Shown: positions 4,114 through 63,946, counted from the first letter of the stretch. The stretch: 64,000 nucleotides of DNA from Candidatus Saccharimonadales bacterium (GCA_025451045.1 JANWLD010000003.1:69690-133689), one strand, 5' to 3'. Notes: a model not told the origin generated them from the sequence alone. Numbers and translations: made by a program.

Positions 4114-5331
4114 TTGAAAAAGATGACTGCTTATGCTAAGATACAAGTGGTATTTTCAAAATACAAACCAAAAATAAAAATAGTAAAAATGCGAAAAAAC
4201 GCCTCACACCCAAGTAGAGATATTGTCCTGTTCAGCAAAGAGGGTCTGTTGGCTATGGTTATGGTATTTGCTCTTGTTTTTGCGACAGTAGGTTCTTCAC
4301 TGGTAAGCGCCGACAAATTTGACGAGAAGATAAAGGCTCTGGCCAGAGAAAACAACAAAACGGCTTCAGCCCGCAACGAGCTGGGCGCGGAAGCGGATAA
4401 CCTTAGCGACCAGATTGGCAAACTGCAGGATCAAATAGACGCCAAACAAGCTGCTATTAATCAGCATCAGGAAGAAGTCGACAAACTAAAAGTTGAGATT
4501 GAAAAAGCCCAGAAAGAACTGGATAGACAAAAGGAAGTCCTGGGCGAATCAATCCGGGCGATGTACCTGGAGGGCGACATCTCGACGCTCGAGATGCTGG
4601 CTACCAGCAAGAACTTGAGTGATTATTTTGACAAGCAGCAATACCGCGAATCGGTCCAGAACAAGATAAAGTCCACGCTGGATAAGATTACCCAACTGAA
4701 ACTGGATCTGAATACCAAGAAGACAAAGACCGAAGATTTGATAGCCGAACAAAAGGATCTAAAAGAAGAACTGGTCGGCCAGCGTTCGGAAAAAGACCGC
4801 TTGCTTTCACTCAACGAAGGCCAGCAAAGCGAACTTAATCAGGATATAAAGGCTAATAATGCCCGAATTGCCAAACTACGCCAGCAACAGGCGATTGAAA
4901 ACGCCCGGCACTTCAGCGGTGTAACTGTTATCGCCGGCCACAATGGCCGCGACAGCTATCCGGACGCTTGGCGCAACGCGCCGCAGGACAGCCGTCTGGA
5001 CAGTTGGGGTATGTATAACCGCGAATGTGTTAGCTATACAGCTTGGAAAGTCTATGAAAGCGGCCGCTTTATGCCGTACTGGGGTGGTCGGGGCAATGCC
5101 AACCGTTGGGATGACAACGCCCGCGCCGCCGGTATACCGGTAAGTTCTACGCCCCGCGCCGGCGATGTTGCGATTGCCCACTGGGGTGCGTTCGGCCACG
5201 CCATGTATGTAGAATCGGTCAATGGCGACGGCACCATCAACATTAGCCAGTACAACTGGGACTATAACGGCACTTACTCCGAAGCTTACCACTTCTCAAC
5301 AAGCGGACTGGTTTTCATACATTTTAGGTAG
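4114..5331 (+). CDS. Secreted coiled-coil + CHAP-domain peptidoglycan hydrolase (PcsB-like architecture)
   Basis: N-terminal TM/signal segment (LLAMVMVFALVFATVGSSLVSA) and a roughly 200-aa heptad-rich coiled coil. The C-terminal CHAP-like region has Cys (NRECVSYTAW) and His (GHAMYVESV) motifs. The start is uncertain (TTG 4114, ATG 4123 or ATG 4189). Confidence 0.8.
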   Translation: MKKMTAYAKIQVVFSKYKPKIKIVKMRKNASHPSRDIVLFSKEGLLAMVMVFALVFATVGSSLVSADKFDEKIKALARENNKTASARNELGAEADNLSDQIGKLQDQIDAKQAAINQHQEEVDKLKVEIEKAQKELDRQKEVLGESIRAMYLEGDISTLEMLATSKNLSDYFDKQQYRESVQNKIKSTLDKITQLKLDLNTKKTKTEDLIAEQKDLKEELVGQRSEKDRLLSLNEGQQSELNQDIKANNARIAKLRQQQAIENARHFSGVTVIAGHNGRDSYPDAWRNAPQDSRLDSWGMYNRECVSYTAWKVYESGRFMPYWGGRGNANRWDDNARAAGIPVSSTPRAGDVAIAHWGAFGHAMYVESVNGDGTINISQYNWDYNGTYSEAYHFSTSGLVFIHFR

Positions 5332-5542: not shown

Positions 5543-6757
5543 GTGGAGCAGACCGATAAACCCAAAAAGTTCAAATTAAACACTAAAATAATCCGTAATT
5601 TGGTAATGATAGCCTTAGTTTTTACCGCCGGGGCGATTATTGGCAGCAAACATCCTAATTTTTTAAACGACCTTAGAAACGAAAAATCAGTTCAAAAGCA
5701 AAGTCTGCCAAATAAATTGGACTATAAAGAGGTGGAAGAAATTTATTCCATGCTTAAAGCTAACTATGATGGCCAGCTGGACATCGGCAAATTACAAGAT
5801 GGCCTGAAAGAAGGCTTGGTTAAAGCCGCTGGCGATCCTTACACCGAATATCTAAACGCTCAGGAAAGCAAGGATTTTGACGAGGCGCTCAATGGTTCGT
5901 TTGAGGGCATAGGCGCGGAACTAGGCAAAGACAAGCAAGCTATAGTTATTATCTCGCCGATAGCCGGTTTCCCAGCGGCCAAGGCCGGCCTAAAACCCAA
6001 GGACATAATAGCCGAGATAAACGGCGAGAATGCCCTGGATTTGAACATAGATGAAGCCGTCCAGAAAATCCGCGGACCGAAAGGTACCATGGTCAAATTG
6101 GGCATTATCCGCGACGGCAAGAAACTTGATTTTGAGATTACTCGGGCGCAGATTACGATTCCAAGCGTAACCAGTAAAGTGGTCAATGGCAACATAGGGG
6201 TGATAAAAATCAGCCGATACAGCGACGATACGGTCGAGTTGGCGACCAAATATGCCAATGAACTGAAAGACAAAGGGGCCAAAGGTATCATCTTAGACCT
6301 GCGCGGCAACCCGGGCGGACTGCTGGACGCAGCCGTTGGCGTTTCTAATTTATGGCTCGAGAACGGGCAGACGATTTTGCAGGAAAAGCGCGACAATGTA
6401 GTCGAGAAAACTTTTTTTGCCGAAGGCGAGCCAATACTAAGCGGTATCCCAACGGTGGTTTTGATAGACGAAGGCAGCGCCAGCGCCAGTGAAATTACTG
6501 CCGGCGCGCTCAAAGATAACGGCGCGGCGGTACTTATTGGCCAGAAGAGTTATGGCAAAGGCAGTGTTCAGGAAGTATTAAACCTAGGCTTTGGCGGCGA
6601 ACTGAAAGTTACTGTCGCCCGCTGGTATACGCCGAAAGGTATCAATATCGATAAAGAGGGCCTGCAGCCGGATCAAAAGGTCGGATTTTCTGAAGCCGAT
6701 GCGAAAGCCAAGCGCGATCCACAACAAGATGCGGCCATTAAGTACCTGAATAGATGA
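5543..6757 (+). CDS. S41 carboxyl-terminal processing protease (Ctp/Prc family) with PDZ domain
   Basis: N-terminal TM segment, PDZ-like segment (GFPAAKAGLKPKDIIAEING), and S41 motifs RGNPGGLL, DEGSASASEI and YGKGSVQ. Confidence 0.9.
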   Translation: MEQTDKPKKFKLNTKIIRNLVMIALVFTAGAIIGSKHPNFLNDLRNEKSVQKQSLPNKLDYKEVEEIYSMLKANYDGQLDIGKLQDGLKEGLVKAAGDPYTEYLNAQESKDFDEALNGSFEGIGAELGKDKQAIVIISPIAGFPAAKAGLKPKDIIAEINGENALDLNIDEAVQKIRGPKGTMVKLGIIRDGKKLDFEITRAQITIPSVTSKVVNGNIGVIKISRYSDDTVELATKYANELKDKGAKGIILDLRGNPGGLLDAAVGVSNLWLENGQTILQEKRDNVVEKTFFAEGEPILSGIPTVVLIDEGSASASEITAGALKDNGAAVLIGQKSYGKGSVQEVLNLGFGGELKVTVARWYTPKGINIDKEGLQPDQKVGFSEADAKAKRDPQQDAAIKYLNR

Positions 6758-61017: not shown

Positions 61018-61069
61018 ATATATAATGTGCCGTACCGCTCATGCTACTTGGCATGTCGTGCTTGGTCAA

Positions 61070-61160
61070 GCCCCGTAGTAGACTTTTGAGTTGGCTTCCT
61101 TTCAGGAAGCTAGCTTCCCGGCCACTTGGCCGAGAAGGTCTCAAAAGCTCACTACGGGGC
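61070..61160. repeat. Z element, copy 1 (about 91 nt, three-way-junction palindrome)
   Basis: 21-nt arms GCCCCGTAGTAGACTTTTGAG / CTCAAAAGCTCACTACGGGGC enclose two hairpins (GCTTCC-tttca-GGAAGC and a GGCC-containing hairpin). Pairing is best on the minus strand. Confidence 0.8.
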
Positions 61161-61207
61161 AAGTTTCAAGACTAATTGGTTTCTTATATATATGCAAGAA
61201 AAATAAT

Positions 61208-62068
61208 TTATTTCAGGTGCCATTGGTTGTTGCCCAAAGGACTTATGGCGCCTTTGATTTCAAGCATAGAAAGGGTTTGCTGAAAAAGCCGTATATTTAA
61301 ATTACTCTGTGCCAGTAGTTCGTCGCCGCTGTTAATACCGTTGCTGAGTAAATTTAGTAGAACGGATTCTTGTTCATTGTCACCGTAAATATCAGTTTGC
61401 TCCATTTGCTTCGGCTTTATGCCTAAGGCTTCAAAAATATCCTGTCCGCTGGTTACCATTACCGCGCCGGTCTTTAGCAAGTTGTTGGTTCCGGTACTGG
61501 TCGGGCTGGTTATATTGCCCGGTACGGCTAGTACAGTCTTGCCTAGCTCCAGCGCGAAATTTGCAGTATATAAACTGCCGCTTTTCTCGGCTGCTTCGGT
61601 GACTAACAGAACATCTGACAAAGCGGCGATTATCCGATTGCGCTGGATGAAAGATTCTCTTCTTGGTCGAAAATCGTCTTCGTACTCGCTGACTAGCACG
61701 CCGTCTTTGGCGATAATGTTTCTAGCCAGTTGCCGGTGGCTGGCCGGATAAATTTCTTTGATGCCGCTAGGGAGAACGGCTACAGTTTTGCCTTTTGCTT
61801 TTAGCGTGCTCATGTGGGCGATACTATCAACGCCCAACGCCAAGCCGCTGATTATACAAATCCCCGCCCTTGCCAAGGAGCTGGCCATCTCTTCGGTTAT
61901 ACCGCGGCCATAACTGCTGACTTTACGCGAGCCAACTATACCGACGGTCGGCATATCAAGCAGTTTGTTGATATCACCTAGGACATTTAATTCCACCGGC
62001 GGCTTAGCTAATAGCTTAAGCCGTTGCGGGTAGGTTTTTGCCTTTTTGCTTATCCTTATTATCTTCAT
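61208..62068 (-). CDS. dprA: DNA processing protein DprA (Smf)
   Basis: VGIVGSRKVSSYG, ISGLALGVDSIAH, and a Rossmann-like fold pattern. The C-terminal winged-helix-like tail is short. Confidence 0.9.
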   Translation of the reverse strand: MKIIRISKKAKTYPQRLKLLAKPPVELNVLGDINKLLDMPTVGIVGSRKVSSYGRGITEEMASSLARAGICIISGLALGVDSIAHMSTLKAKGKTVAVLPSGIKEIYPASHRQLARNIIAKDGVLVSEYEDDFRPRRESFIQRNRIIAALSDVLLVTEAAEKSGSLYTANFALELGKTVLAVPGNITSPTSTGTNNLLKTGAVMVTSGQDIFEALGIKPKQMEQTDIYGDNEQESVLLNLLSNGINSGDELLAQSNLNIRLFQQTLSMLEIKGAISPLGNNQWHLK

Positions 62069-62108
62069 TTACACTTTTTTGATAAATGTACAATTTTATA
62101 TTTAAGTA

Positions 62109-62137
62109 TTGACATAAAGTAACATTTTTGCTAAAAT
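62109..62137 (+). promoter_or_regulatory. Consensus sigma70-type promoter driving the structured RNA
   Basis: TTGACA (62109-62114), a 17-bp spacer, then TAAAAT (62132-62137). Confidence 0.6.
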
Positions 62138-62143
62138 TGCAAC

Positions 62144-62520
62144 TTGTAAGTCCGCCTAGTCGGATTTAAGCACCTTACACCCTTCCGTTCCGCTGTATAG
62201 CGGATTTACGGAAAGTTAGATTGTTTTAGAGTGCAGGTTACCTGCTGGCTAAACTAAGTTGTTACCCTCCACTTAGTATAGCCTATCCGCTTATGTTAGC
62301 AGATGCTCTAAAGCAAGCTAACCCCTTTAACTATTGCAGTCACCCTCGGGTGGCAATTGCGGTACCCCGTTCAATGCGAGCCTAAACGGTTTGTTCGTTT
62401 AACGACGGAGAAAACACGATCCTTTACGAGTTTATGGGAATCGATGTTTCGCCGGGGTGGGTTGAAGGGTGTAATGAGTCTCTAGCGGTGCCCACCCCCT
62501 CTAGAGACTCTTTTTATTTT
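62144..62520 (+). ncRNA. Unassigned structured RNA (about 375 nt), either a stand-alone RNA or a long cis-regulatory leader
   Basis: No ORF of 60 codons or more in any frame. An 11-bp long-range helix TTACACCCTTC (62175-62185) / GAAGGGTGTAA (62464-62474) encloses at least six local hairpins. GGGGTGGG (62455-62462) is complementary to CCCACCCC (62491-62498) in the terminator loop. The RNA ends in an intrinsic terminator. Confidence 0.6.
62476..62520 (+). terminator. Rho-independent terminator
   Basis: A 10-bp stem GAGTCTCTAG / CTAGAGACTC (62476-62485 / 62501-62510) is followed by TTTTTATTTT. Confidence 0.8.
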
Positions 62521-62639
62521 GCTTGATTATCACGGTTGACGCTTCGCTCGTGACTACATAAAAGTCCACCGGACTTTTATGCCCTCTAGAGACTCTTTTT
62601 ATTTGCTATTTTGTTGTTAATATTGTAAAATTATCATAA

Positions 62640-63287
62640 ATGAGAATTAGTGATATTGGAAAACTGGCTAAAGCCGAAGCCGATGATAATTTTGAGCTGA
62701 GGGTCTGGCTTATAAAACAACAACACAGTAAAGATACTGAAAGGCGCTGGAAAATAGAAAGAGATCTGAGAAATGGCGTTGGTGAAGACTATGATGTGCC
62801 CGAGCAACTGAACGCTATACTACTTAAAAGGATTTTTAACTTAATGAACGGACTATGGAACACGGAAAGTTATGGAACTTTTACCTCCGAAATAGCTATT
62901 GGCAGACCATCCAAAGAGAATCCTCGCCCTATGCTAGATAATTTAAGAGGTATTAGGTCTTCGCAAACATTTAAAATACCAGGTGTAGGCAAACCGGTCG
63001 TTATGGATCGGTGGGATGGATATCGCGTCTATGGCATAGGTGAAAGAGATGAGTTTACTACCAGCCTAGGGCTGAGAGGCCAGCTAGGCTCTTTTGCACT
63101 GGTGGGAGAGGGTAAGAGTTTTTACATGATGCCTGAGATAACCGAATCGCCTACAGAAACACAGCTTAGCGGTTTAGGCCGGACTGCAACTTATCAACGG
63201 GATATTGAAACTTTAGTTAATATATATTCCACGCTTGATTTAGATAAATCAATAATGCACGAAGAACCGGTAATCCAACCGGTTTAG
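62640..63287 (+). CDS. Hypothetical protein
   Basis: 215-aa ORF with no motifs. Confidence 0.6.
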   Translation: MRISDIGKLAKAEADDNFELRVWLIKQQHSKDTERRWKIERDLRNGVGEDYDVPEQLNAILLKRIFNLMNGLWNTESYGTFTSEIAIGRPSKENPRPMLDNLRGIRSSQTFKIPGVGKPVVMDRWDGYRVYGIGERDEFTTSLGLRGQLGSFALVGEGKSFYMMPEITESPTETQLSGLGRTATYQRDIETLVNIYSTLDLDKSIMHEEPVIQPV

Positions 63288-63302
63288 ACAATAAAACTGC
63301 GG

Positions 63303-63396
63303 GCCAGGTAGTGAGCTTTTGAGAATAACTCTGCCAAACGGCAGGGTTATTTAGTTCGCTTGAAAGAGCGAACTGCTCAAAAGTCTACTACTTGGC
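63303..63396. repeat. Z element, copy 2 (about 94 nt; opposite orientation to copy 1)
   Basis: The arms GCCAGGTAGTGAGCTTTTGAG / CTCAAAAGTCTACTACTTGGC are the reverse-complement versions of the copy 1 arms. The inner hairpins are AATAACTCTGCC-aaac-GGCAGGGTTATT and AGTTCGCT-tgaaag-AGCGAACT. The right arm overlaps the last codons of pth. Confidence 0.8.
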
Positions 63397-63946
63397 GGGT
63401 TTCGGCTGGGAGTTCCCCGCTGCCGTGGGCGTACTCGCTCAAGATACTGTTAGTTTCCTGGAGCAGTAGTTTCAGGTTTTCTTTTTGTTCTTTGCTGAAT
63501 TTACCAAGAACGAAATCTTCGCTGGCGATTTTCTCAGGTGATTTCGGTCCGACGCCAATTCGCACCCGGCCAAAATCTTCACCGCAGTGTTCTATAAGCG
63601 ATTTGATACCGTTATGGCCGGCAGATTTACCGCCGATACGTGTTCTGATAGACCCGAAGTCAATGTCCAGTTCGTCATGGACTACCAAAGTTTTTGAATT
63701 GTCTATCCGGTAAAAATGCTGGACAGCATGCAATGCTACCCCGCTGACGTTCATAAAAGTCGTCGGTTTTATCAAGATGATTTTGTTATTGCCCAGAGTA
63801 TGTGAAGTAAGCTCGCACTTCAAATCTTTTTTGTTAATCCAGTCTGGGAAATCTTGTTTTTTAGCAAAATTATCTAAAGCATCAAAGCCGATGTTGTGAC
63901 GCGTGCCAACGTAATTTTTACCGATATTACCAAGGCCAACAATCAA
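63377..63946 (-). CDS. pth: Peptidyl-tRNA hydrolase
   Basis: MIVGLGNIGKNYVGTRHNIGF, VVHDELD, and GGHNGIKS-like (SAGHNGIKS). Confidence 0.93.
   Translation of the reverse strand: MIVGLGNIGKNYVGTRHNIGFDALDNFAKKQDFPDWINKKDLKCELTSHTLGNNKIILIKPTTFMNVSGVALHAVQHFYRIDNSKTLVVHDELDIDFGSIRTRIGGKSAGHNGIKSLIEHCGEDFGRVRIGVGPKSPEKIASEDFVLGKFSKEQKENLKLLLQETNSILSEYAHGSGELPAETRQVVDF

Follow-up and report, generated by a model that had tools for sequence, protein, structure and literature searches.

Two palindromic elements of about 90 bp lie near the end of a 64,000-nucleotide stretch from Candidatus Saccharimonadales bacterium (GCA_025451045.1, JANWLD010000003.1:69690-133689; the whole stretch is referred to here as the window). 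They raise the question of whether they act as RNA at the 3' ends of genes, as an initial annotation had proposed, or are mobile DNA. We find that both copies are insertions of an element resembling a miniature inverted-repeat transposable element (MITE). We also consider it probable that these Z elements are non-autonomous, MITE-like derivatives of a very small mobile element of the Saccharibacteria/Patescibacteria, which carries a gene for a GIY-YIG nuclease related to the Ssn nucleases. In the miniature form two short hairpins take the place of the gene between the ends of that element. The host belongs to the Saccharimonadales according to the names on the homologues of its proteins and all matches of the genome scan described below, and homologue searches identify the genes next to the copies as encoding DprA, TopA and Pth (Pfam Pept_tRNA_hydro).

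Copy 1 occupies positions 61071-61159 (89 bp) and has the minus strand as its top strand (5'-CCCCGTAGTGAGC...). Empty sites were sought at the loci of the closest TopA homologues (L055 and L056, with 82% and 79% identity), and the element is missing from the dprA-topA spacer of both relatives. This spacer measures 88 and 99 bp in the relatives and 190 bp in the window. In the alignment of the site the relatives read TCTTGA(AG/GG)CTTGACCAAGC, and the window reads TCTTGAAACTTG, followed by the 89 bp of the element and then by CTTGACCAAGC; a single CTTG in L055 and L056 corresponds to CTTG-element-CTTG in the window. The two parts of this target-site duplication lie at 61067-61070 and 61160-61163, and both read CAAG on the plus strand and CTTG on the top strand of the element. 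The part at 61067-61070 overlaps a promoter-like site for topA at its -35-like TTGACC (TTGACC-17-TAGCAT; 61069-61041 on the minus strand), a box that the retained CTTGACC supplies, and copy 1 lies immediately upstream of this site; the site is recognised as a consensus match only.

Copy 2 (63304-63395, 92 bp, plus strand on top) had been placed between the open reading frame (ORF) at 62640 and pth, but it interrupts the coding sequence of pth rather than lying downstream of it. The element is missing from the pth 3' end of L056, where the gene ends intact with GCC GAA ACC CGC AGC TTC CTT ATA TAA. In the window copy 2 begins after GCC GAA ACC CG, and the last codons are rewritten: the present stop codon, a TGA at 63377-63379 on the minus strand, lies inside an arm of copy 2, and the ORF (63377-63946) ends in AETRQVVDF in place of AETRSF(I/L)(V/I). 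The former 3' end of the gene was severed by the insertion and is found orphaned at 63284-63303 (minus strand), where CCCGCAGTTTTATTGTCTAA aligns with the intact end of L056, CCCGCAGCTTCCTTATATAA. The duplicated tetramer is CGGG at 63300-63303 and again at 63396-63399, the latter corresponding to the CCCG in the pth codons. Before copy 2 was inserted, the stop codons of pth and of the neighbouring orf215 overlapped.

The two insertions belong to a family. An arm-pair pattern was used to scan one genome per bacterial species, and a relaxed pattern was used to scan metagenomes. The former gave three loci, all from metagenome-assembled genomes of Saccharibacteria/Saccharimonadales; the latter gave 38 loci, about 30 of which are true members. 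Fuzzy searches and a covariance model found additional copies inside these loci, and the pooled set comprises 38 non-redundant copies. All non-redundant relatives (about 38 from genomes and metagenomes) come from Saccharibacteria/Patescibacteria, and none of the 38 matches of the relaxed pattern in viral contigs is a family member. The metagenome matches L006, L007, L010, L013/L030 and L016/L017 were set aside, as they share only the searched letters, probably by chance. Several of these loci contain other long palindromes that include GTAGTnnnCTTTTG (L006 1090-1184, L007 59-152, L016 778-890, L017 1388-1502, and L013/L030). These palindromes are perfect or nearly so, with arms of up to about 32 nt, symmetric central triples and no CC...GG ends, and are probably unrelated elements.

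Target-site duplications recur throughout the family. Exactly at the element boundary, just beyond CCYN...NRGG, almost all copies have a direct repeat of four nucleotides; it is perfect in 23 of the 38 non-redundant copies, and 121 of the 152 flanking positions match. When left and right flanks were paired at random, 10,000 permutations yielded 2.0 perfect repeats on average and never more than 8, and other offsets gave 0-2. All 15 distinct duplicated tetramers have the form YNNR. This explains why arms of 21 nt had been described: the 20-bp stem holds, but the outermost 'pair' is the R/Y of the duplicated tetramer. For copies between co-directional genes, the top strand is sense in 9 cases and antisense in 11; others lie between convergent or divergent genes. 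Random orientation of this kind had been named at the outset as an outcome that would refute the RNA reading. Random orientation, empty sites and target duplications together lead us to abandon the reading as an RNA stability or processing element, or a small RNA, at the 3' ends of genes.

Within the window, the inverted-repeat search recovered both palindromic copies, as annotated, with arms of 21 nt. Those of copy 1 (61070-61090/61140-61160) are 86% complementary and those of copy 2 (63303-63323/63376-63396) 81%; overlapping palindromes aside, these two rank first among the short-range inverted repeats that the window contains. Each of the four arms includes the 16-nt core GTAGTRRRCTTTTGAG, which has no other exact occurrence in the 64 kb, and the 17-letter consensus given initially has one letter too many and no match. 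A covariance model built from 28 family members matched only copy 1 (84.7 bits, E 2e-22) and copy 2 (71.8 bits, E 1e-18) in the 64 kb, with the next match at E 0.3. In both copies a closing stem of 20 bp surrounds two hairpins. The 5' arm of the top strand of copy 1, with the GAG-type end, lies at 61140-61159 (minus strand; CCCC GTAGT GAG CTTTTGAG), and the 3' arm, with the AGA-type end, at 61071-61090 (minus strand; CTCAAAAG TCT ACTAC GGGG). Between them lie hairpin 1 at 61114-61137 (minus strand; CTTCTCGGCC-AAGT-GGCCGGGAAG, with one T·G pair) and hairpin 2 at 61094-61110 (minus strand; GCTTCCT-GAA-AGGAAGC). Copy 2 has, on the plus strand, its 5' arm at 63304-63323 (CCAG GTAGT GAG CTTTTGAG), hairpin 1 at 63324-63351 (AATAACTCTGCC-AAAC-GGCAGGGTTATT), hairpin 2 at 63352-63375 (TAGTTCGCTT-GAAA-GAGCGAACTG) and its 3' arm at 63376-63395 (CTCAAAAG TCT ACTAC TTGG).

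Both strands of both copies fold with z-scores of -8 to -9.5 relative to dinucleotide shuffles. As had been suggested, the minus strand is the more stable one for copy 1 (-59.8 versus -56.6 kcal/mol) and the plus strand for copy 2 (-58.9 versus -44.7 kcal/mol). The absence of a T-run after either copy, on either strand, was likewise confirmed, so that neither copy qualifies as an intrinsic terminator. The sole terminator-like match within a copy is on the minus strand at 63344-63331, with five pairs and by the loose rule of five T in eight only, and the total of the terminator scan is at chance level (7 found, 3.4 expected). No Rfam 15 family matched the window copies at gathering score, and a relaxed search (E<=1) gave only a chance match to U2 (E 0.17); a scan for tRNA and tmRNA found none.

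The consensus of the top strand in the family is 5'-CCYN GTAGT GAG CTTTTGNN - A - hairpin 1 - hairpin 2 - R - NNCAAAAG TCT ACTAC NRGG-3'. Over the 20 stem pairs of the 38 copies, covariation is seen at positions -1 and 13-16, where as many as four kinds of Watson-Crick pair occur and mismatches are very rare; the covariation noticed earlier for the outer arm pairs is thus real and reaches into inner pairs too. In a MAFFT alignment of 28 copies, 7 of the 20 stem pairs have double-sided changes, in 30 cells, a result reached by none of 500 shuffles. In the true register 93.8% of the cells are paired in these copies, in slid registers the pairing drops to about 40%, and permutation of the partner arms never attains the observed value. 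Of the 38 copies, 37 have G·T at stem position 6, all 38 have A·C at position 7 and 36 have G·T at position 8. The asymmetry of the G·U type that had been read as a sign of the transcribed strand is genuine, but it is a constant trait of the element, found in 36-38 of 38 copies, and does not depend on local transcription.

The interiors measure 31-53 nt, are non-coding and consist of hairpins. On their own they fold better than shuffles (mean z -4.4, with 31 of 35 below -2), almost always into two hairpins. Hairpin 1 forms a family with the base A-Y-Y-A/T-T-C...G-A-T, and CTCGGCC-AAGT-GGCCGGG is found in many copies. The hairpin 1 of copy 1 recurs with compensatory changes in L001, L004, L008, L012, L021, L026 and L033, and the two window copies differ here by a compensatory change from G-C to T-A (CTCGGCC-AAGT-GGCCGGG in copy 1, CTCTGCC-AAAC-GGCAGGG in copy 2). 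The description of the enclosed hairpins as unrelated in sequence was consequently only half right, failing for hairpin 1, and a TGAAA(G) loop, taken for a constant feature, is not shared by relatives. L001 differs from copy 1 by another stem at hairpin 2; the remainder is identical except for one outer stem pair.

Some copies have their interior in reverse complement, although the polarity of the arms is unchanged. This is seen between L014 237-302 and L038 254-319, which occupy an orthologous site of two related genomes, and also in L024 2309-2371 and L003 3466-3535. At the site shared by L014 and L038 the flanking tetramers differ concordantly as well (TATG/TATG versus CGTG/CGGG). In L003 (3440-3560) there are three occurrences of GTTATACC, one within the element and one in each flank, and TTATACC also borders the copy at L002 4181; these repeats may stem from an insertion that was nested or rearranged, or may mark a target that is preferred. 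Copies form local clusters in the window (61071-63395), L002 (2748-5379), L004 (10122-10867), L014 (14-306), L020 (3024-6943) and L026 (2748-3804). Overall copy number is low, with two copies in the 64 kb of the window and no miniature copies in 60 kb around three gene-bearing copies.

The same ends also enclose a gene. At L002 5066-5379 they are flanked by a TATG/TATG duplication and surround a single ORF of 104 amino acids, which matches Pfam GIY-YIG (E 2.4e-16). The arms of this unit, CCTAGTAGTGAGCTTTCTAT and ACAGAAAGTCTACTACTAGG, are 305 bp apart, and their inner box CTTTCT/AGAAAG is itself compensatory; two miniature copies lie 0.8 kb and 2.2 kb away. The full-size unit measures about 313 bp and consists of 20-bp ends (5'-CCYN GTAGT GAG CTTT... 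/ ...AAAG TCT ACTAC NRGG-3') around its sole gene. Judging from these shared ends, the miniature elements are very probably akin to the GIY-YIG unit. A protein search returned 614 homologues; where the listed matches name a source, it belongs to the Saccharibacteria or to other Patescibacteria. Among the best 120 of the 614, 70 are exactly 104 amino acids long; the left arm encodes the MPSSEL(S) with which 102 start, and the right arm the QKVYY with which 94 end. Eight end with RKSTTRYA, the other frame of the same DNA, which indicates that the ends are conserved at the level of the DNA. The core of the enzyme diverges to about 55% identity while the ends are conserved, and the catalytic-type residues of GIY-YIG enzymes are invariant. 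The Pfam domain covers residues 11-78 of 104, that is, this is a single-domain protein. Its AlphaFold (AF2) model has a mean predicted local distance difference test score (pLDDT) of 82, only the arm-encoded termini are predicted to be disordered (pLDDT below 60), and the nearest solved folds are UPF0213 BH0048 and Slx1.

The unit of gene and ends is present in more than 100 lineages. Five Saccharibacteria contexts were examined, with the unit before a Fur-like gene, a gene for 181 amino acids after ruvB, a gene for 381 amino acids, an XerC-like integrase gene and tig; a sixth comes from another Patescibacteria lineage (L097). All six read NATG-element-NATG, with the unit exactly on the start codon of the host gene. 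The left ATG opens the nuclease ORF, and the right ATG, 3 nt past the nuclease stop codon, is the start of the host gene. No promoter or ribosome-binding site belonging to the gene-bearing form itself can be seen. An empty site is available here too: the hisS-tig spacer measures 45-49 bp and contains a single start codon in L099 and L100, and in L054 it measures 357 bp and contains the GIY-YIG unit. In the L097 copy (5960-6300) the GIY-YIG gene, as the interior, is reverse-complemented relative to the polarity of the arms. A further GIY-YIG gene, for 83 amino acids and 40% identical to the L002 gene, is found at L019 200-522 (minus strand) without arms and is followed by four tandem TATTGGCCGGGT.

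The window copies show the hallmarks of MITEs in their length, terminal inverted repeats, duplications of fixed length and presence or absence at orthologous sites, and the longer element with the same ends has as its only gene that of a GIY-YIG nuclease, the candidate transposase; the unusual part is this partner. If this nuclease mobilises the family, one strand of the element would fold, with the two ends pairing into the 20-bp stem, and the invariant G·T/A·C/G·T distortion would mark polarity and likely be a feature that is recognised. The nuclease would be supplied in trans by a gene-bearing copy elsewhere in the genome and would cut the element boundaries, make a cut with a stagger of 4 nt in the target, or both; host repair would fill in the duplication and host functions would complete the integration. 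For the gene-bearing form, the left duplicated ATG would then start the nuclease ORF and the right ATG would restore the host gene. Effects on RNA, such as transcript ends or stability, would be a by-product of the landing site. Two independent duplex sites would not be expected to covary as the left and right ends do, which argues for a folded single strand as the substrate, and the fixed triple in an otherwise covarying stem likewise suggests that the DNA is recognised as a folded single strand. In our opinion the most economical hypothesis is mobilisation by the GIY-YIG nuclease, one that we hold tentatively and regard as falling a little short of evenly balanced. The suggestion that the unit of about 313 bp is an autonomous transposable element with the GIY-YIG nuclease as its transposase is put forward with slightly more reserve.

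Several observations weigh against this proposal. The link between nuclease and movement is one that we infer from sequence comparison. GIY-YIG enzymes are hydrolytic, and they are not known to have strand-transfer activity or to transpose DNA. Joining by a hydrolytic nuclease, the reversal of interiors and the clustering of copies lie outside the proposed mechanism, which does not explain them. Perfect duplications are missing from 15 of the 38 copies. Gene-bearing copies appear to be single-copy in their genomes, unlike a proliferating insertion sequence; the window contains no GIY-YIG gene in its 64 kb, and among the loci read, L002 is the only case in which gene-bearing and miniature copies were seen together in one genome. 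With RNA parameters the GAG-first strand is the more stable one in 26 of 35 copies, but DNA parameters show no strand bias (17 of 35), and the choice of strand rests only on the conserved triple. Arm positions 1-5 and 9-14 were fixed by the search patterns, so that their invariance is partly due to ascertainment; the searches left open positions -4 to -1, 6-8 and 15-16 and, for the copies from the looser core search, positions 13-14 as well.

The main rival is a conventional transposase acting in trans. Inverted ends with short duplications, here of 20 bp and 4 bp, are the classic signature of DDE transposases, and such an enzyme could be encoded elsewhere in these genomes. Z elements would then be ordinary MITEs, and the GIY-YIG gene would be only a passenger, or would encode a homing endonuclease and have settled in one of the copies. 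The free-standing GIY-YIG gene without these ends in the same group (L019) fits this explanation, which we regard as possible but doubtful. In about 0.6 Mb of fetched loci no conventional transposase with these ends was seen, and ends bound as duplexes would not be expected to covary. The persistence of gene and ends together in so many lineages, with protein identity falling to about 55% and a further lineage of Patescibacteria included, is also difficult to reconcile with a chance passenger, and the unit, being exactly gene plus ends, leaves no space for another function. Free-standing GIY-YIG homing genes, such as the seg genes of phage T4, are likewise small selfish genes wedged between host genes; however, homing is recombinational copying into an allelic site, without inverted ends or duplications and without gene-less miniatures at unrelated sites. 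The Z elements do resemble bacterial MITEs, such as the Correia elements of Neisseria, RUP and Nezha, in their size of about 90 bp, non-coding sequence, terminal inverted repeats, short duplication and intergenic location, as well as in their presence or absence between relatives, stable fold and landing beside promoters or gene ends. They differ from them in that the partner with the same ends encodes a GIY-YIG nuclease and not a DDE transposase, that the interior consists of two hairpins, constant in fold but not in sequence, rather than of a decayed transposase gene, and that the two ends differ by a conserved block of 3 nt. A structured RNA, in which a three-way junction in the upstream mRNA would serve as 3'-end stabiliser, processing site or small RNA, would account for the very stable fold, the covarying stem, the bias towards the GAG-first strand under RNA parameters and the co-orientation of both window copies with an upstream gene. 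We consider it very unlikely: orientation is random overall, with divergent genes on either side of some copies; the duplicated targets and the empty sites mark insertions; identical ends flank a protein gene; there is neither an Rfam family nor a T-run; and reversal of the interior relative to the arms at an orthologous site would destroy a strand-specific RNA.

Two other possibilities concern known systems for folded single-stranded DNA. Of the systems described so far, the Ssn nucleases come closest; they are single-domain GIY-YIG proteins of about 94 amino acids, which bind a hairpin repeat (NTS/SRM) in single-stranded DNA, cut one strand upstream of it, ignore double-stranded DNA and RNA, and modulate natural transformation in Neisseria (Chenal 2025, PMC11893778). 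Their genes are flanked by repeats; the authors remark on the resemblance to insertion sequences and leave the mobility of repeat-ssn-repeat units and the spread of the repeats as a hypothesis (PMC11893778). A term search of that paper found no occurrence of 'target site duplication', 'direct repeat', Patescibacteria or Saccharibacteria, and literature searches on GIY-YIG in combination with inverted repeats, target duplication, Saccharibacteria or MITEs gave no description of the present family. The protein described here is closest to an Ssn-type nuclease: in hhalign a profile of 30 sequences matched an SRM-flanked Ssn-type protein of Rhizobium with a probability of 98% (E 6e-14, 70 columns), and E. 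coli YhbQ (UPF0213) with E 7e-6 over 32 columns. The gene for the homologue on the Rhizobium plasmid is flanked by perfect, inverted matches to the SRM motif. At this locus (L058 1380-2380, plasmid pRheCIAT894e of Rhizobium sp. CIAT894) one SRM lies upstream of the gene and three lie downstream on the opposite strand; a further same-strand SRM is at 2250-2280. The nuclease gene sits within a larger palindrome, CACCACCTCTCCTCC...GGAGGAGAGGTGGTG, and an IS4 transposase gene adjoins it.

Z elements could therefore be a domesticated system of the Ssn/SRM type, in which the copies are sites for cutting incoming single-stranded DNA and modulate natural transformation, their spread being ancient and their present role regulatory. 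The systems share a single-domain GIY-YIG protein of about 90-100 amino acids, a gene between inverted copies of a repeat that is dispersed elsewhere in the genome, and a fixed strand polarity. The clustering of copies around genes (dprA and orf215 in the window; also L002, L004 and L014) and the presence of competence genes in Saccharibacteria (dprA in the window) agree with such a role. Still, the SRM motif HGTCWY..YYVSBRH..WNVSBRG..RNCYNB has no match in 384 kb of loci, whereas the NTS control and the Rhizobium locus match; a single arm here is not a hairpin, and it is the two ends that pair together. Copies are few per genome region here, compared with hundreds there, and the insertions are recent relative to species that are about 80% identical in TopA. 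Target duplications, empty sites, insertion at start codons and gene-less miniatures, all seen here, further set the family apart. We think a domesticated system rather unlikely; nor would it conflict with mobility, to which it is not a genuine alternative. Movement as a REP/REPIN-type element by a RAYT (Y1 HUH) transposase would explain why the arms start with GTAG, a tetranucleotide that is reportedly conserved at the 5' ends of REPs, and why two inverted conserved modules surround a variable spacer as in REP doublets. The Z elements also resemble REP/REPIN-RAYT systems and IS200/IS605 in having palindromic repeats recognised as folded single strands, polarity, a very small gene and scenarios of domestication. 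Those systems, however, use HUH tyrosine enzymes, and HUH single-strand transposition makes no target duplication; no such gene is associated with the Z elements, single arms are not palindromes, and the gene between the same ends encodes a GIY-YIG and not a Y1 enzyme. Movement by a RAYT is thus extremely improbable. What remains of the earlier suggestion of a REP-like family is that this is a dispersed, palindromic, mobile repeat family with further copies in relatives; membership in REP/RAYT does not stand. A hammerhead-type ribozyme, attC, Y RNA, an L10 leader (considered as L001 lies upstream of rplJ) and a DNA uptake sequence were also rejected, given the lack of conserved junction nucleotides and of GTTRRRY/RYYYAAC boxes, the unrelated contexts and the low copy number.

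Returning to mobilisation by the GIY-YIG nuclease, the family adds to what is known of repeat-flanked nuclease genes exact boundaries, 4-bp YNNR duplications, empty sites for both forms, landing on start codons and gene-less derivatives, and the sufficiency of a GIY-YIG enzyme for transposition becomes testable with a construct of 313 bp. If the proposal is true, the unit would be a prokaryotic transposon of a novel mechanistic class, and perhaps the smallest that is autonomous, which recognises its own ends as a folded single strand, parasitises host start codons and spawns MITEs; it would also answer the question raised for Ssn on the mobility of repeat-ssn-repeat units. The insertions show that mobile DNA is active in Saccharibacteria/Patescibacteria, whose genomes are very small; its consequences are visible in the rewritten C-terminus of Pth and in the insertion beside the putative topA promoter. 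The stems would also offer defined recognition sites in folded single-stranded DNA for a new branch of programmable nucleases acting on such DNA.

The two copies in the window lie within 2.3 kb in inverted orientation and bracket dprA, a candidate non-coding RNA and orf215. The candidate is a structured RNA of about 370 nt in the long spacer between dprA and orf215 (62109-62522, plus strand). Its features are a strong promoter-like site (TTGACA-17-TAAAAT with TG, 11/12), an intrinsic terminator (GAGTCTCTAG...CTAGAGACTC and a T-run) and the absence of any ORF of at least 60 amino acids. Its minimum free energy corresponds to a z-score of -6.1, and it has no match to Rfam, tRNA or tmRNA even at E<=10. 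The sequence is 73-74% identical in the relatives (L055 8-452, L056 4636-5004), and RNAalifold finds 16 pairs with compensatory changes among the three sequences. In L056 an ORF for 141 amino acids without a Pfam match was called over this region and is probably spurious. The ORF orf215 itself belongs to no Pfam family, and its slot is not conserved; the only ORF called there in L056, this probably spurious one, is unrelated, with no similarity. A palindrome, AAAGAGTCTCTAGAGG / CCTCTAGAGACTCTTT, is found on both sides of a conserved stretch of about 90 nt (TTATCACGGTTGACGCTTCGCTCGTGACTACATA...), at 62473-62513 and 62583-62598 in the window and at 4289-4304 and 4441-4456 in L056, and looks like a terminator stem that was reused and is followed by a promoter-like box.

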